A stretch of 64,000 nucleotides of DNA from Octopus vulgaris. Lineage: Eukaryota. Each line of letters starts with the position of its first letter. Position 1 is the first letter of the stretch. Below the pieces are notes generated by a model that was not told the DNA's origin, made no database searches, and worked only from the letters and a program-made list of their open reading frames with translations. Positions 3,240 through 43,852 of the stretch are shown piece after piece. A program made the translations under genes and the position numbers. The stretch spans positions 36,146,001 to 36,210,000 of the forward strand of contig OX597816.1 of the NCBI GenBank assembly GCA_951406725.2, given 5' to 3'.

Positions 3240-3576
3240 ATAATAATATTTGATACAAGTTATAGCTGGTTGGTTGGTTGAGTTCTGTAACGCTTTGCAT
3301 CATATATAACGAGAGAAGGAGAAGGAATGTAAAAGAGAGATGCAAAGTGTGTTAAGAGCTGTATGATGTACACACATATGAGGCGTTTTGCAGGTGATGA
3401 CACTTGTCAGAACAATATAAATGAAATTTTGAAGAGGGAGATTATTGATGGAGTAGAATGCGTTTGTCTTTAAAAAAAAAAGATTAGAAAAATAATAGTA
3501 AATTTATGAATTTGTTTTGCGAGATTCCTGATGTGAAATCGTGTGTTGAAACGGGTATTGTTATATATCGGGATAC

Positions 3577-14048: not shown

Positions 14049-14134
<86 letters not shown>

Positions 14135-14140
14135 TACTAT
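14049..14140 (+). repeat. (TTA)n microsatellite
   Basis: Direct reading. Confidence 0.95.
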
Positions 14141-14149
14141 CCTCATCGT

Positions 14150-17725: not shown

Positions 17726-18997
17726 TCAGGTCATCCCATAAGTGCTGTCCAATTTTACCTGTTTCTAAAAAATTGAATGAAATTTAATAGTATTTTAGAA
17801 TGTCTAATTGAATTAAAGATTATTTTTATTCATTTGTGTTTATTTAAACTAATTAAATATTATTTTACAGAATAATAAAATTAAAATTTCTTTGATCAAA
17901 AACCCTTTCTAACATGGAAGTATCCAAAGAGCATTTAAGGCACATAATGATTTATGAGTACAAAAAAGGAAACTCTGCAGCCCAAGCGACTCTATAACTT
18001 ACGTTCAGCTTATGGGAAAGAATGCTTGAATGAAGGGACTTGCAGAAGATAGTTTACAAATTTCAAAAGTGGAGACTTCAGCCTTGAAGATGAAGATCGA
18101 ACAGGACGTCCAGTTGAGTTTGATGATAAGATATGTGAGACATAACTTGAAGAAAATCCTGCATTATCAGTTGAATAATTAGCAATAAAACTTAGTTCAA
18201 ACCAGACAACAGTTCATCGTCACCTTCAACAACTTGGAAAGGTCCCTAAACTTGGAAAATGGGTGCCTCATGTTGGAAAGTAAATGCAAATCCCGAGTTG
18301 ACATCTGCTATTCCCTGTATTCTCGCGAAATCATTTTCACCTTTTTCGGATAGACTTGTGACTGGTGACGAAAAATGGATCTTCTATCAAAATGTTAAAC
18401 GTCGTAAACAGTGGCTGGGTAAAAAGGAAAAATCGCAACCACAAACGAGGAGGGAACTTCATGGGAAAAAGTTTCTTCTCTCTATCTGCTGTGATTACAA
18501 AGGAGTAATTCACCTTGAATTGTTACCACATAATGCAACAATCAAAGCAATTAGAGCGTTTGAACTAAGCTTTGAAGGACAAAAGACCCGCTTTAGTGAA
18601 TCGGAAAGGAATGATGTTTCTTCAGGACAATGCGTGACCCCACACTGCAAAGATCACATCAAAGAAGATCGAAGAACTTGGTTGGGAAAAAATTCCTTCC
18701 CCACCCTATTCTCCCGACCTTGCTCCTTCAGACTACGATTTGTTTCGTAGTTTACAGAATCATTTGGGCGACATAACTTTTGCAAGCCAGGAGGAGATAG
18801 AAACTGACGTTTCAGAGTTCTTCGCTTTGAAGCCAAAAGGGTTTTACATTGATGAGATTAAAAAGCTTGTAAATAGATGGAAGGAAGTCATGGACAATCA
18901 GGGAAAGTACATTGATGATTGCATTTCAATTAAATATAACATTTGATCACTTGTTTTCGTTATTCAAAATTCGGACAGAACTTATGGGATGACCTGA
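17726..18997 (+). mobile_element. Mariner (DD34D) transposon, full length, 1272 bp, defective
   Basis: TIRs TCAGGTCATCCCATAAGTGCTGTCC / GGACAGAACTTATGGGATGACCTGA; TA target duplication at 17724-17725 and 18998-18999. Confidence 0.95.
17914..18946 (+). pseudogene. Mariner transposase pseudogene
   Basis: MEVSKEHLRH start; WVPH, TGDEKWIFY, LQDNA, YSPDLAPSDY motifs; stops and frameshifts. Confidence 0.9.
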
Positions 18998-20248: not shown

Positions 20249-20338
<90 letters not shown>

Positions 20339-20406
20339 ATATTTCGGAATGGTCATATTGCCAGTTTAGCCAATAAAAAATCTTGCACAACAAATATTTA
20401 AACGTA

Positions 20407-23710: not shown

Positions 23711-23712
23711 GG

Positions 23713-24080
23713 AAAATGGAGTTTGCAAGAATCCTTATTCAACACAACGGTTGTTTTCGACCCATCAGGTAGGATATTGTGCAGCTAGTTGTGCTGCATC
23801 CACAATGCAGAATGCGACTCATCAGGCGTCTCATTTTAAATAAGTTACTTCACTACATAATTAATATCCTACCCGCAAGGGATAGAAGCATAATGGGTCG
23901 AAACGACCGTTGCGTAGAAAAATCTTTCTTGCAAACTCCATTTCTTATTTCCGTCATTCCTTATAAAATCAACGAACATTGAGGAGTTCCTGACGTAGAT
24001 CCAGTGAGATTTATATCATAACTGTGAATTACACTGGGGAGCGTAAACAAACCATATAACGAAAGGTCCAAATAATTACT
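23713..24080. mobile_element. Inverted-duplicated PLE-type terminal fragment with degenerate hammerhead
   Basis: Arms 23713-23778 and 23864-23943 are inverted copies; minus strand reads ACGC-CTGATGA...GGGTC-GAAAAC-AACC-GTT-GTGT at 23829->23742. Confidence 0.6.
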
Positions 24081-24131
24081 TATACAAGCGTGTATGTATT
24101 AAGTATGTATGTGTGTATGTATGTATGTATG

Positions 24132-24223
<92 letters not shown>

Positions 24224-24226
24224 CTT

Positions 24227-24874
24227 CGGTCGCAACTGCGGTAAGTACGAAATCACAGATGATACAAGACTAAATTCATTTTTTAAATGTCTTGCTTTGA
24301 AAAATTGCATTGGGTATGATTAGTAAAATTCTTTGGTAGAAATGACTAATGTCCCTCTTAGCGTGTGGCATGTATGTGTAATAATGCCCTCTATATATAA
24401 ATTAATATGTTCAATAAGAAAGAATTATTTTCGAAATGTTTCTCTTATGAGGTTTTTCACGCTATCTACCTGATAATTTCTTGTTAAGATTCCTTATTAA
24501 TAGGTTATCCTAAATTGTTAAATAATTTTATTCCGAAAAAACTTTTCATCCGAAATGCAATTCGAAGAAGCCTGCCATTTACCGGATGTATTATATGTAA
24601 ACTTCCCCATGTGCTTCGTTGGAGTAGAACAGATAGCTGTTCGGCTTTGACGGTGCGAGGTCGTTTATTTATGATATGTTCAGAATCAGTCTTGCTGATG
24701 AGTACGGTCGCAACTGCGGTAAGTACGAAATCACAGGTGATACAAGACTAAATTCATTTTTTAAATGTCTTGCTTTGAAAAATTGCATTGGGTATGGTTA
24801 GTAAAATTTTTTGGTAGAAATGACTAATGTCCCTCTTAGCGTGTGGCATGTATGTGTAATAATGCCCTCTATAT

Positions 24875-24882
<8 letters not shown>
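24227..24882 (+). mobile_element. Retrozyme-like non-coding element: 478-nt unit with 178-bp direct terminal repeat, inserted in (TA)n
   Basis: 24227-24404 repeated at 24705-24882 (period 478); no meaningful ORF; contains an intact HHR. Confidence 0.8.
24683..24755 (+). ncRNA. Type I hammerhead ribozyme (canonical core)
   Basis: Stem I AGTCTTG(24688)/CAAGACT(24749) extended by GAAT/ATTC; CTGATGA 24695-24701; stem II GTAC/GTAC; GAAA 24727-24730; stem III ATCAC/GTGAT; predicted cleavage after AUA at 24742. Confidence 0.88.
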
Positions 24883-24927
<45 letters not shown>

Positions 24928-24933
<6 letters not shown>

Positions 24934-25133
24934 ATTCGTTAGCTACTGCACGCATTTTTTTCTCTCCTTCTTTCTGTGTTTTTCTCTCTCTGTGTATCTT
25001 TCTGTTGAAGAGCGTAGGCTCGAAACGTTAAAGACTTGTTTTATTTATATTTCCTGAGCGCCATACTAATACAATTGTTCGTTTGTTTTCCACCTGCCTT
25101 CGTATTTTGTTTATTTTCATAAAGCTTCCCGTT
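24928..25133 (+). mobile_element. Solo PLE 3'-terminal repeat, same family as 32683-32885
   Basis: Near-identical to the last about 200 bp of the PLE at 30903-32885; (TA)n on both sides. Confidence 0.9.
24997..25034 (+). ncRNA. Minimal PLE-type hammerhead, CUGUUGA variant
   Basis: TCTTT-CTGTTGA-A-GAGC-GTAG-GCTC-GAAA-CG-TT-AAAGA; stems I and II pair; palindromic AACGTT stem III. Confidence 0.65.
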
Positions 25134-25517
25134 ATATATATATATATATGCATGTATGTATATATATATATATATATATATAGATAGATATAGATAGATA
25201 GATAGATATATTGATTCATTCTATATTGATTGAGAATACGCTATAGACGATTTGTTTTGGAGTCTAATAATACCATGTACGCCTATGAAGATTTACAAAC
25301 ATACTTTTCCAGTGATACTCGGTTTACCTACAATTATAAACAATACCGAATGTGATACAAGTCTTTGGTGTAGCAATTGCATGCGGCTGAAGAGGGCTTT
25401 TGAACTATCTGTTATGTCGATCATACATTGATGTAAGCATAAGTTGTTCTATAAAGCTCGAAACATATGTACCGCAACATCCTTTGCGTCCTGTTTTTCA
25501 TTTACTTCATTTGATAC

Positions 25518-30902: not shown

Positions 30903-31918
30903 TCATCTAGATTCCTTCCTCTCTTTCGTCCAATCTTTCCATCCAGCCCTCCACTTCACTTCCACTATCTCCAACACCTCTGTCTCCTTCCTCGACATTT
31001 CGGTTAGCATTCTTCACTCCACTCTTACCACCTCCATTCACTACAAACACACAGACTCACACTCATACCTCAACTTCTCTTCCTCCCACCCAGAACACAC
31101 CAAGCTTTCCATCCCCTATTCCCAATTCCTCCGTCTACGTAGGCTCTGTAGTGACGACCATGACTGAGACTCAGTCTCAACGTATGGCTCACCACTTCAC
31201 CCTACGTGGATACCCCCTCACCACTATCCACACCGCCCTTGCCAGAGCACGGTCCGTGGACCGTGTATCTGCACTCTCTCCCCGAACCCGCCCTGTAGTC
31301 TCCCGCCTCCCTTTTCCCCTCACTTACCACCCCACGACCCTACGTCTCCAACGCACCATTCTTCGAGCTTTCCGTCATCTCCAGTCCGACCCGTCCACTT
31401 CACACCTCTTCCCTAACCGACCCCTCCCCTCTTTCAAACGAGCCCAGAACCTTCGAGACCTTTTGGTCCATAGCTCCTTCCCTGACCCTACCTCCCAACT
31501 CGGCTCGTTCCCCTGCTCCCGCCCACGTTGCCGCACTTGCCCTTACCTCTCCAACACCACCCGCCTCACTAGCACCCACCATCGACCCTATCCCATCATC
31601 CACTCCTTCACCTGCACCTCCAGCAATATTATCTATTGCATCTCTTGCTCTCTCTGCAATTCCTTGTACATCGGACAAACGGGACGCCGCTTGGCTGACC
31701 GGTTCGCGGAACACCTTCGTGACATCCACCTTGCGAACGACACACCGGTCTCACGCCATTTCCGCTCCACCGGTCACTCCTTGCAACACCTATCTGTGTT
31801 CGGTTTGTCCTTACACAGAGGCCATCCGGATTCACGTTTGCGCCGTGAACAGGAATTAATCTTCTCTCTTCGCTCTTATACGCCATTTGGTCTCAACTCT
31901 CCCCCCCTCCTCATCTAA
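30903..31918 (+). pseudogene. PLE reverse transcriptase C-terminus and GIY-YIG endonuclease
   Basis: SFLDISV...HYKHTDSHSYLNFSSSHP...SIPYSQFLRLRRLCS; frameshift near 31160; then RGYP, CxxxxCxxC, NIIYCISCSLC..LYIGQTGRRLADRFAEH, REQELIF..GLN. Confidence 0.92.
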
Positions 31919-32234
31919 CCCCCCTCTCCCCCCTCCTCACCTATCCTTTCCCCCCGACCCATACTTCTTCAGTCCTTCATCCTTTCACCCCTACTCCCGT
32001 TCCCTTCTTCCCTCCTTCTCCCTCTCTCCTTCCCTCTTCCCCTTCCCTCTGCTCCCTCACTCCCTCTCTCCCCCTATCCCTCTTTCCTCCTTCATCCCCC
32101 TCCTCCCCTTCCTTCTCCCCCTCCTATCTCTCCCCCCTCCTCTCATCCCCCTCTTCTCCCCCCCTCTTCTCCCCCTCCCCCTCTTCTCCTCACTACACCA
32201 CACGACTTTACACATCACATCATATATGATGTGC

Positions 32235-32570
32235 CATACTAATACATACACCAACTAATACATACTAATACGTACTAATACATACTAATACATACTAATA
32301 CATACACCAACCCTATACATACACACGTCCAGACCCCGCATACGCACTTATACTCTCTCATACACACACACACACACTTATACATACTAATACGTACTAA
32401 TACATACTAATACATACTAATACATACACCAACCCCATACATACGCACATCCAGAACAATCCTACGCACTAATACTCTCTCATACACACACACACACACA
32501 CACCCTTATACATACTAATACATACACCAACCCTATACATACACACGTCCAGACCCCTCCTACGCACTAT
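32235..32570 (+). repeat. CATACTAATA-based minisatellite with higher-order (~120-130 bp) repeats inside the PLE 3' UTR
   Basis: Repeated CATACTAATA and ACCAACCCTATACATACACACGTCCAGACCC blocks. Confidence 0.85.
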
Positions 32571-32751
32571 TAGCTGGTCCTTCAACCCTATTATCAACCC
32601 TATTATCAACCCTATTATCTCCCCTTATTTCGCTCTCGCGTCTCATGTTTGATCTTTGACCTCTGGCCGAAATCAGATCGCCATGTTGATTCGTTAGCTA
32701 CTGCACGCATTTTTTTCTCTCCTTCTTTCTGTGTTTTTTTCTCTCTGTGTA

Positions 32752-32789
32752 TCTTTCTGTTGAAGAGCGTAGGCTCGAAACGTTAAATA
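32752..32789 (+). ncRNA. Minimal PLE-type hammerhead, CUGUUGA variant (second copy)
   Basis: Same as 24997-25034, with one stem I mismatch (AAATA). Confidence 0.6.
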
Positions 32790-32883
32790 CTTTTATTTAT
32801 ATTTCCTGAGCGCCATACTAATACAATTGTTCGTTTGTTTTCCACCTGCCTTCGTCTTTTGTCTATTTTCATAAAGCTTCCCG

Positions 32884-32926
<43 letters not shown>

Positions 32927-32928
<2 letters not shown>

Positions 32929-34740
32929 AATTTTTTGCGTAATGAGATAAAAAAAAAACAAGGCTGTGTAGATATTAGAGCATTTATAGATAGAAGGTCT
33001 TACAACTGGTTGTAGGGTATTTATTAATAATATCTCTTCATCGGAGACGGTGTGAGAGGATGGTTAAGTCATAGTTTAGTTGTGATACAGAATTGAGAGT
33101 GAGGTGGAGAAAAGAAAATAGATGAAAGATATGTATGGATATTGAAGGTATAAATCTATTTTTTAGGTATAATGGTATATATGCAATATTCCAATATCCT
33201 ATGAGTAAAGTCCAAAAGTCCAACAGAGTTTAAAATGGTTCTTTCCAAATATAGAGTTTATAAGCAATGAAAGATTCCCTTATGAGTGAGATACAACAGA
33301 TTTTTAAACTTGGTCATTCCCAGTAGAGAATTTATATAGTGTTGCAGAGTCAAAAGTTTTTATTTAAAGTGACCTAAAAATAGGGAGGTCAACTCGAAAA
33401 CAGGAAGAGAGGAATGAAGAAAGAGAAAAAGAAAGGGAAGAGAAAAAAGAGAAGAGAAAGAAAAATGAGAGAGAGAAAAGAGAGAGAAGAAGGAGAAGGA
33501 AGTAAGAAGAAGATTAATAAAATAATAACAAAATAAAAAATGAAACCCCTGAAGAGAGATATAAAGGGAATAAAGAAAAACAGAAAAAAGAAAAACGAAG
33601 ATAAAGATCAGTCAGTGGTCACTAGAGGTAATTTGAAAGTAGGAGTGGGGATATGAAGAGTGAAAGAGAGAGGAAGGTATTATAGTGTAAAAACATAGAA
33701 GGTATGATGGGGGTAAGAGGTAAAGGAATCATAAATGTGTAGTAGTAGAGTCTATGTGTATGGGCAGAGAAATGGTGTTAGTATTATGAAGAATTAAGGA
33801 ATTTATATGTTTGGCAGTTCTGTTTTTAGTAATATGAGAAAATATATATGTGAAGATGTATATACATGTATATATCAGACACGTTACACATACAACCCTT
33901 ACTTGCATGCATATGTACTTATGCACACTCACTTATACGTTCGCCTGTATGTATCATCGTCCCTGTATACGCAGGTATATATACCTTGTATGCATACATA
34001 TATTTACACAAACCCACATACATATACGCATACGCTCACTCATACATATACACGCAGACATGGGTGTATGCACATATATACGAATACAATAAGATGGTTG
34101 TACATGTGAGGAACTAGATAGGGATTAGGAGTTAGAGTGTATATTCATAAGGTTATTTTGATTACCTAAGAAGTATTGTGGAAATGTGCTGTATTGTTAT
34201 TTTTGCATTTGGATTTGTGGTAGGATTTTAAATGTGTGATAAATGCGGTGGTGGCATGTACTTAGTGCCTCGTTATGTTTATTTAGCAGTGTTAGAGAGT
34301 TGTACTTTAATATGTGGAGTGCCTCTTTCAGGCAGAACTTGCAGGTTGAGCGTTGACCTCGGTAGGGAAGTCCTGAGTCCATTATGGATCATGATAGATT
34401 ATAGGGTATATTTGCATTTTTGAGATGATGTATGTGGTTGGCGAGTGTTGTAGATTTTCTATGTTTATCGTATCTAAAAGAATGGAAATGAGTGGGATAC
34501 CGTTGCTTAAATTTTTTTGTTGATCTTAGGTATATGGCTGTAGAGTTGTGCAATAGATTAAGGACCGTGCATTTGTAAATTACATTATATCTTCTGTAAT
34601 AGGTTTGTAACGGGCAGGGGGTTCCAGGACGGCAATTACAATTAAGTGAACTTTGGGGACCGTGATCGGTAATATAGGAGGTAGCATCGTCAGAAGAGAG
34701 GTTATAGAAGGGGGTGAAAATTTCTATATTATTAATATTA
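32927..34740 (-). mobile_element. Penelope-like element 3' part (GIY-YIG + long 3' UTR + degenerate HHR)
   Basis: CNCR..PCPL....NVIYKCTV...IYL.ST.KFKQRY..H; CKFCLKE....LLNKHNE..STCHH; decayed HHR GTCT-CCGATGA-A...CAGTTG-TA-AGAC at 33048->32997. Confidence 0.85.
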
Positions 34741-34747
34741 GTGAGTG

Positions 34748-35100
34748 AGAGAGCAGTGCATGCCATCAAAGTGAAACTTGGGTAAAATATACGAAGCGCA
34801 GTATACCCATCATGACTACCCGTCTGATAAGGGTTCACTAGGCATATGCATCACAGTCATATGTGTGCGACATTGTGATTTCATATGAAGATAATTAGCA
34901 CGTGACCTTGCAGGTGGGGCCTAGTTAGAATTTTCTTCTGGTCGAGTAACACATCCCGCTCAAAAGGTCCCTGAATAAGGGTTGTTTAAGCATTTTGAAC
35001 AAAACACCCATGTTTCCAAATGTGAATTATCCAAACCCCAAAGAATCCCTCCCAATACATGGCTATGAAGCTCCCCCAATAATTGCGCCTGTTCTTGGTG
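34748..35100 (+). repeat. Interspersed repeat family D
   Basis: Longest copy of the repeat also at 14314 and 36860. Confidence 0.8.
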
Positions 35101-43650: not shown

Positions 43651-43852
43651 GGTCCCGGGTTGATTCGGGGTTAACCACAGTAAGTAAGGCACTCAATACA
43701 TAGCAGAGTAAAATTAATTTATTATATAGAAGGAGCTTCTACAGGACTAGTACTGTTTCATTCAAGAGAAATCTTCAGGAAGCTTCCTGAAGATTTCTCT
43801 TGAATGAAACAGTACTAGTCCTGTAGAAGCTCCTTCTATATAATAAATTAAT
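43649..43852. mobile_element. PLE-type terminal fragment forming a perfect 140-bp palindrome (43713-43852), inside (TA)n
   Basis: 70-bp arms, no mismatch, no spacer, centre at 43782/43783; (TA)n on both sides. Confidence 0.85.
43781..43831 (+). ncRNA. Type I hammerhead ribozyme (mirror copy on the minus strand at 43734-43784)
   Basis: AGCTTC-CTGAAGA-T-TTC-TCTT-GAA-T-GAAA-CAG-TACTAGTC-CTG-TA-GAAGCT; GUA cleavage triplet ending at 43825; U-U at the base of stem II. Confidence 0.75.

Follow-up and report, generated by a model that had tools for sequence, protein, structure and literature searches.

A dispersed, protein-free repeat of Octopus vulgaris with a conserved hammerhead ribozyme and a candidate route into (TA)n

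The Octopus vulgaris window considered here (the whole stretch of DNA analysed, 64,000 nt) sits on one contig (G000:C3) of an assembly of 2.8 Gb in 227 contigs and contains a short, tandemly repeated insertion. Is this insertion a local duplication, the terminus of a larger element or a mobile element in its own right, and which RNA and which enzyme would have placed it there? A preliminary description read it as a retrozyme-like, protein-free element made by reverse transcription running more than once around a 478-nt circular RNA, and mobilised by TA-targeting Penelope-like elements (PLEs) nearby.

The window copy and its ribozyme

The insertion (24227-24882, + strand) belongs to subfamily A and consists of a single, 5'-truncated arm of 1.37 units that terminates at a site termed E1. 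As first described, it holds a 178-bp direct repeat with a period of 478 (24227-24404 and 24705-24882), the two copies differing by 3 substitutions; (TA)n target sequence lies on both flanks (24137-24221 on the left, 24883-24929 on the right), and coding capacity is absent, the longest stop-free frame being 87 aa at a GC content of 34%. Five junction bases at the 5' side (24222-24226, + strand) resemble neither the unit nor (TA)n and are likely untemplated. If the unit is numbered from the first base past the predicted ribozyme cut (m1, window 24265 and 24743), the arm begins at m441, crosses two cut sites and ends at E1. Site E1 (24860-24882, +), presumed to be where reverse transcription starts, is an AU-rich fixed 3' end that lies about 140 nt past the cut; it occurs a second time internally, ending at 24404. 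Site E2 (24524-24531, +), about 260-267 nt past the cut, is the fixed 3' end of other copies and is internal here. The "tail" between the two (24405-24531, +, about 120-127 nt) pairs with a stretch 5' of E1 in the consensus fold of the family, in which 11 of 69 pairs vary on both sides. The cut-to-cut monomer (24265-24742, +; 478 nt, 34% GC), which is the predicted circular RNA unit, is itself strongly self-paired (z = -4.45), and 0 of 100 shuffles are equally stable.

The downstream copy was said to complete a canonical type I hammerhead, and all stems and the core can indeed be located within 24683-24755 (+), with a predicted cut after 24742; fold and natural-variant pairing both support the assignment. 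Stem I has 7 bp (24688-24694 with 24743-24749) and a 4-bp extension (24683-24686 with 24752-24755), all on the + strand. The core comprises CUGAUGA (24695-24701) and GAAA (24727-24730), stem II has 4 bp (24702-24705 with 24723-24726) topped by a capping hairpin, and stem III has 4 bp closed by a tetraloop, with A17 at 24742. The upstream copy carries only the 3' half of the ribozyme (24227-24264, +: loop II, the 3' arm of stem II, GAAA, stem III and A17 at 24264), as had been noted; its start is the last base of the stem II 5' arm rather than a position in the loop, and it therefore lacks the core. Because just one complete ribozyme is present, the window copy is probably the outcome of a copying event, not a source of further ones, and may represent a dead end.

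Comparison with Rfam Hammerhead_1, a check that the preliminary description had proposed, gives a local match in a 161-nt search (24689-24748, 17.4 bits, E 0.086) that stays below the gathering score of 34; in a scan of the whole window, a hammerhead is not among the matches listed. Exact matches to the 40-nt core pattern number 37 in the genome and 0 for a reversed control, so the pattern is not a chance feature. In 20 natural ribozymes, selected to span subfamilies and related in sequence, 96.8% of stem cells are paired, against 23-45% if the structure is slid by 1-3 columns, and both-sided changes occur at 10 of 19 stem pairs. The covariation score is reached by 0 of 500 shuffles; for two further measures, based on the number of pairs or of types, the real alignment does not stand out from the shuffles (97/500 and 211/500). 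The fold is likely under selection, since the stems covary and no shuffle matches the score. Each unit thus has the canonical type I hammerhead expected of a retrozyme, although it scores below the Rfam gathering threshold.

Elsewhere in the window, an 80-nt near-perfect palindrome (43743-43822) has a mir-3199 match under the gathering score, and 18250-18750 contains a Mariner-type transposase fragment (PF01359).

A family with two fixed ends

Genome-wide, the core-plus-stem-III pattern has 660 matches and a second stem III variant a further 505, with 0 for the reversed controls; the resulting total of more than 1,100 ribozyme junctions counts motif matches, not loci. By sequence, the element is a dispersed, protein-free mobile repeat present in hundreds of genomic places, with a conserved ribozyme predicted to be self-cutting. 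This supports the multicopy, TA-targeted, retrozyme-like, protein-free element proposed at the outset, and makes a single-copy locus or plain local duplication highly improbable. At least 8 subfamilies are distinguished, with unit lengths of 457-497 nt: the 13 reference units measure 457-494 nt at 65-96% pairwise identity, and other monomers reach 497 nt. When a divergent family copy serves as query, family members alone are returned. Short head-to-tail units, lack of coding capacity with GC below 50% and a self-paired monomer are all retrozyme traits found here. In the accessible literature, searches for a cephalopod retrozyme turned up no description of the family; supplements and Repbase might list it.

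Tandem copies are scarce in the older subfamilies, whose 660 cores include 44 head-to-tail pairs and 1 triple. The view that arrays are lacking throughout the family is overturned by the youngest subfamily, H, which has 2-4-mers plus one 31-mer, and in which 17 of 64 arms cross at least 2 cuts. The 31-unit array (G000:C1:64.64-64.655 Mb; L319, L320) is bounded by E1, E2 and (TA)n; its arm ends at E2 and faces an E1 arm. Its units are nearly identical, one variant being common to 3 non-adjacent units. As its size is far beyond the length distribution, the 31-mer may reflect later amplification.

Insertion anatomy was analysed in 187 loci of the older subfamilies (less 20 duplicate fetches and 8 loci with multiple or unclear insertions) and 36 loci of subfamily H, 223 sampled loci in total. 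Of the 300 arm ends in the 187 older loci, 158 are located at E1 (~m140), 123 at E2 (~m260-267) and 19 elsewhere, so that E1 or E2 accounts for 281. Beyond 266 of these 281 canonical ends (TA)n follows directly, in keeping with the microsatellite target of non-autonomous PLEs; any target-site duplication is masked by (TA)n. The 5' ends are variable, and many loci consist of two arms placed head to head. In two-arm loci with two canonical ends, one arm stops at E1 and the other at E2 in 83/86 older loci (p 3e-21) and 18/18 H loci, 101/104 overall. The remaining two-arm loci have one non-canonical end (11 older, 5 H) or are complex (10 and 2). Insertions therefore do not start at the ribozyme cut, but at two fixed internal 3' ends. 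A genome-wide search for the circularly permuted, multimeric, TA-flanked copies anticipated in the preliminary description finds the multimers and the TA flanks but no free permutation, the 3' ends being fixed. Both arms often halt at m55-70 near a short A/T palindrome (L081, L090, L104, L105, L124), and m41-80 holds 23/82 arm ends, which suggests a stall or joining site around m41-80.

This layout of partial tandem, inverted 5'-truncated arm and one-end tail is that of non-autonomous PLEs, except that the tail is longer than described. It also matches the pseudo-LTRs of PLEs, and could in principle be produced if the copies were truncated termini of autonomous elements, or local duplications. 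However, an attached RT/GIY-YIG ORF is found at 0/58 loci chosen solely by a 22-mer of the 3' end; moreover, 5' of the ribozyme every long copy runs into another unit, and a unit of 457-497 nt is kept across subfamilies that are just 65% identical. Termini or duplications of this kind are thus a highly improbable source of the family.

The RNA template

The reading preferred here, with a probability of roughly 0.6, is that the reverse transcriptase (RT) of an autonomous PLE copies into (TA)n a unit RNA that has been cut by its ribozyme and likely closed into a circle. The 1.37-copy layout, from which copying around a circle was originally deduced, is insufficient alone to show a circle, because autonomous PLEs in this genome form the same partial tandems. 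A trimer (L141) was likewise set aside as proof of rolling, as it may be a later duplication. Further evidence comes from the behaviour of the arms at the cut and from the alleles of successive passes.

Single-pass copying of a cut linear monomer would end every cDNA at m1. Instead, among 44 arms that reach the first cut (drawn from 52 loci chosen only by their 3' end), 40 continue past it according to a separate alignment, and the remaining 4 extend 4-20 nt beyond it. In the family, 266 junctions are in register at the cut and 0 carry an indel; 17 further matches to the junction pattern proved on inspection to be unrelated sequence. Read-through could also arise if the RT, on reaching the 5' end of a cut linear monomer, jumped precisely to the 3' end of that monomer or of a second one, with stem I as the clamp. 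Such jumps would account for homogeneous passes as well as for the few loci with differing later passes, stem I does unite both monomer ends, and in a larger set six arms halt within 5 nt of the cut. However, end-to-end jumps of an RT usually scar the junction, as seen in work on R2, and none of the 266 junctions has an indel; nor is a pile-up of 5' ends at the cut obvious by inspection. Jumping between monomer ends is accordingly held to be improbable, though less so than an origin from PLE termini.

Copies diverge by 0.9-3.0% within a locus and by 2.5-4.6% between loci. Across 15,067 sites, 25 alleles private to one locus (absent from the other loci among the 223 sampled) recur in each tandem pass, spread over 16 loci; coincidence would yield 0.2, and the count is restricted to groups with at least 8 other loci. 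Subfamily H adds 14 such alleles in 8 loci over 6,810 sites, for a total of 39 in 24 loci; one H locus of 4.2 units (L312) has three private alleles in each pass. Opposite arms share private alleles at a rate similar to that of tandem passes (29 in 12,772 sites), which argues against conversion confined to tandem units. At four loci the pattern differs: an allele present in the first pass of both arms is missing later (L022 at 3 sites; L329, L337 and L339 at 1 each), as would be expected from a template switch, from later conversion or from a linear template whose units are unequal.

These four loci, where an allele is dropped in a later pass, would also fit a second explanation, in which the PLE enzyme primes as proposed but reads through an uncut linear dimer or array, with the units kept alike by local amplification or conversion from time to time, and the ribozyme serves another step. 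Arrays of near-identical units do occur, autonomous PLEs make partial tandems too, and the in vitro reaction of Poseidon_Ac used mainly uncut RNA (PMC11167929). Against an uncut template, private alleles common to all passes are far more frequent than private alleles that agree by position, and the 44 pairs and 1 triple among the 660 older cores imply few long donors; in addition, the common allele of the first and last pass of L312 is poorly explained by amplification after insertion. Uncut read-through is therefore considered unlikely, while being the most serious of the competing explanations. Most likely, judging by the sequences, one unit-length RNA was copied repeatedly, a circle being favoured. 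Of the initial proposal, repeated cut-to-cut copying is thus favoured by the shared private alleles, and the 1.37-copy layout offered for it is not what carries it.

The unit is covered by contigs of sequencing runs whose RNA origin is a guess, no run being recorded as RNA; such contigs would look alike whether they derive from a circle, a tandem transcript or DNA. One of them (X5 record 25) spans the upstream cut and extends beyond it by more than 31 letters in both directions, a DNA source being possible, and H-type letters recur in contigs of three runs guessed to be RNA (X2, X3, X6).

Under the preferred reading of a cut and circularised template, mobilisation would begin with transcription of a locus that holds at least two cut sites. 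The hammerheads, whose fold and conservation are observed, would release a monomer of 457-497 nt, which a host ligase would circularise, as in described retrozymes. A PLE RT/GIY-YIG complex would then cut both (TA)n strands and prime one at E1 and the other at E2, in line with the two ends and their pairing in the loci. Each cDNA would cross the cut, sometimes repeatedly, and stop at a variable point, as the footprints indicate. Finally, the two cDNAs would be joined head to head, or one would be lost as in the window, which are the layouts present. In a more specific and decidedly tentative form of this scheme, the element would be a viroid-like circular RNA parasite that captures the PLE enzyme by structure and not by common sequence, with double priming at E1 and E2, one for each strand of the cut TA repeat, and up to ~31 rolls.

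The candidate enzyme and related systems

Of the several PLE families seen, two that are young and autonomous and have intact frames, Neptune-type and PLE-B, were compared with the unit; protein searches for PLEs were saturated by near-identical copies. The PLE adjoining the window copy, presumably Neptune-type to judge from its linker motif, is a neighbour outside the element: its 3' terminus lies at 24928-25139 (+) and includes a minimal hammerhead-like motif (25002-25030). Neptune-type elements target (TA)n and have a single fixed end; a 3' tail is absent from all 36 loci, as is an inverted arm from the 27 loci that have the 5' end in view; one locus (L177) has one short, separate reversed fragment. 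Without tail, inverted arms or similarity to the unit, the adjacent element is unlikely as the mobiliser. Mobilisation of a PLE type, as first suggested, is thus retained, but the abutting Neptune-type copy is probably not its agent. This family is very young, with 20,229 candidates and full copies that have frames of 1,100-1,200 codons, and is also present at 30904-32891 of the window. At the position of core A6, the hammerhead-like motif at its terminus shows U or C-containing changes, and may thus be inactive.

PLE-B (L205, L279) encodes an RT with a C-terminal GIY-YIG domain in open frames of 1,310-1,312 codons, and copies of its RT region are 86-100% identical. Like the octopus unit, it targets (TA)n and forms head-to-head arms. 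Its ends lie 127 and 180 nt past its hammerhead-like motif, and are paired as E1 and E2 in 15/15 two-arm loci, which were chosen for inversion and not by their ends. The E1 offset is 140 nt in the unit and 127 nt in PLE-B. In PLE-B, unlike the unit, the tail is 53 nt and the minimal hammerhead is degenerate, and sequence similarity between the two is not significant. Local alignment of the unit with the ends of both autonomous families gives scores inside the shuffled range. PLE-B or a relative would be the best candidate partner by its insertion signature; the link is drawn from signature only, because neither PLE family examined shares significant sequence with the unit. PLE-B also has a long Asn-rich insert, many identical copies and 753 C-terminal aa that have no Pfam match, and fragments of it occur in the window (20331-20406, 3496-3574, 14066-14146). 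An assignment to the Hydra clade was rejected, as its DKSG motif and linker are unlike those given for that clade (PMC8557442).

Other elements of similar type occur nearby and elsewhere. Window positions 23711-24085 hold a head-to-head element with two related arms, one with CUGAUGA...GAAA, which is unmatched in the fetched loci and possibly represents another small PLE-type family. A degraded GIY-YIG fragment (34389-34850, - strand) belongs to a further PLE family. The unit sequence has no match in six other hammerhead loci. A second hammerhead-bearing, TA-ended family, unrelated to the unit (L061-L063, L065; 3' end ~160 nt past the motif), is present in 1.26-kb duplications on C27.

Among known systems, the closest are the metazoan non-LTR retrozymes, with which the octopus family shares a short non-coding unit, a type I hammerhead, low GC, a self-paired fold, monomers to multimers and a proposed PLE mobilisation via circular RNA (PMC7229834; 10.64898/2026.07.22.740005). 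The unit exceeds the 170-400 nt of PMC7229834 and falls within the 51-972 bp of 10.64898/2026.07.22.740005, and, compared with the retrozymes described there, most copies are under two units. Neither main text mentions cephalopods, and a strict (TA)n target, two fixed internal ends and inverted arms were not found described there. Circles and cleavage were demonstrated for the described retrozymes, whereas the octopus family is known from sequence alone; of nine Xenopus retrozyme dimers, 8 failed to cleave in vitro (10.64898/2026.07.22.740005). The circle model was already proposed for retrozymes and PLEs (PMC7229834, PMC4209133). In animal retrozymes, the mobilising enzyme and circular templates are presented as proposals, and the repeats as having no motif that hints at a partner (PMC7229834, PMC7761336).

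Endonuclease-bearing PLEs provide the second comparison (PMC8557442, PMC11167929, PMC4209133). Their signature of partial tandems, inverted truncated arm and one-end tail (PMC8557442) recurs in the octopus family, as do the microsatellite target and a start 3' of the hammerhead. In contrast to these PLEs, the family has no ORF, a tail of ~120 nt rather than 30-40, and a complete stem III where the PLEs have a minimal hammerhead. Non-autonomous elements of Chlamys and Xenopus share sequence with autonomous PLEs in the accounts cited here, whereas the octopus family shares none with the two families examined. In the sole in vitro PLE system, Poseidon_Ac has two internal start sites and both strands are cut and extended, in agreement with the scheme proposed for the octopus unit; ribozyme cleavage is dispensable there and the main substrate is uncut RNA (PMC11167929). 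A description of the paired-end (E1+E2) mechanism was not found in the accessible literature.

The element is a metazoan non-LTR retrozyme, additional to the members described, and its mechanistic footprints are better than theirs: there are two priming sites, a strict E1+E2 pairing found in one autonomous family and not in another, and private alleles by which the repeated copying of a single unit can be traced. With footprints this clean, defined RNAs and an intact ORF bring the questions of enzyme and template within reach of testing. The family also bears on the purpose of PLE hammerheads and on the origin of PLE tails and inverted arms. If a circle that captures the enzyme by structure is the true reading, the loci would document directly, at the level of the genome, that a retrozyme undergoes rolling-circle reverse transcription, and the element and an intact candidate enzyme in one genome would form a ready pair for reconstitution.
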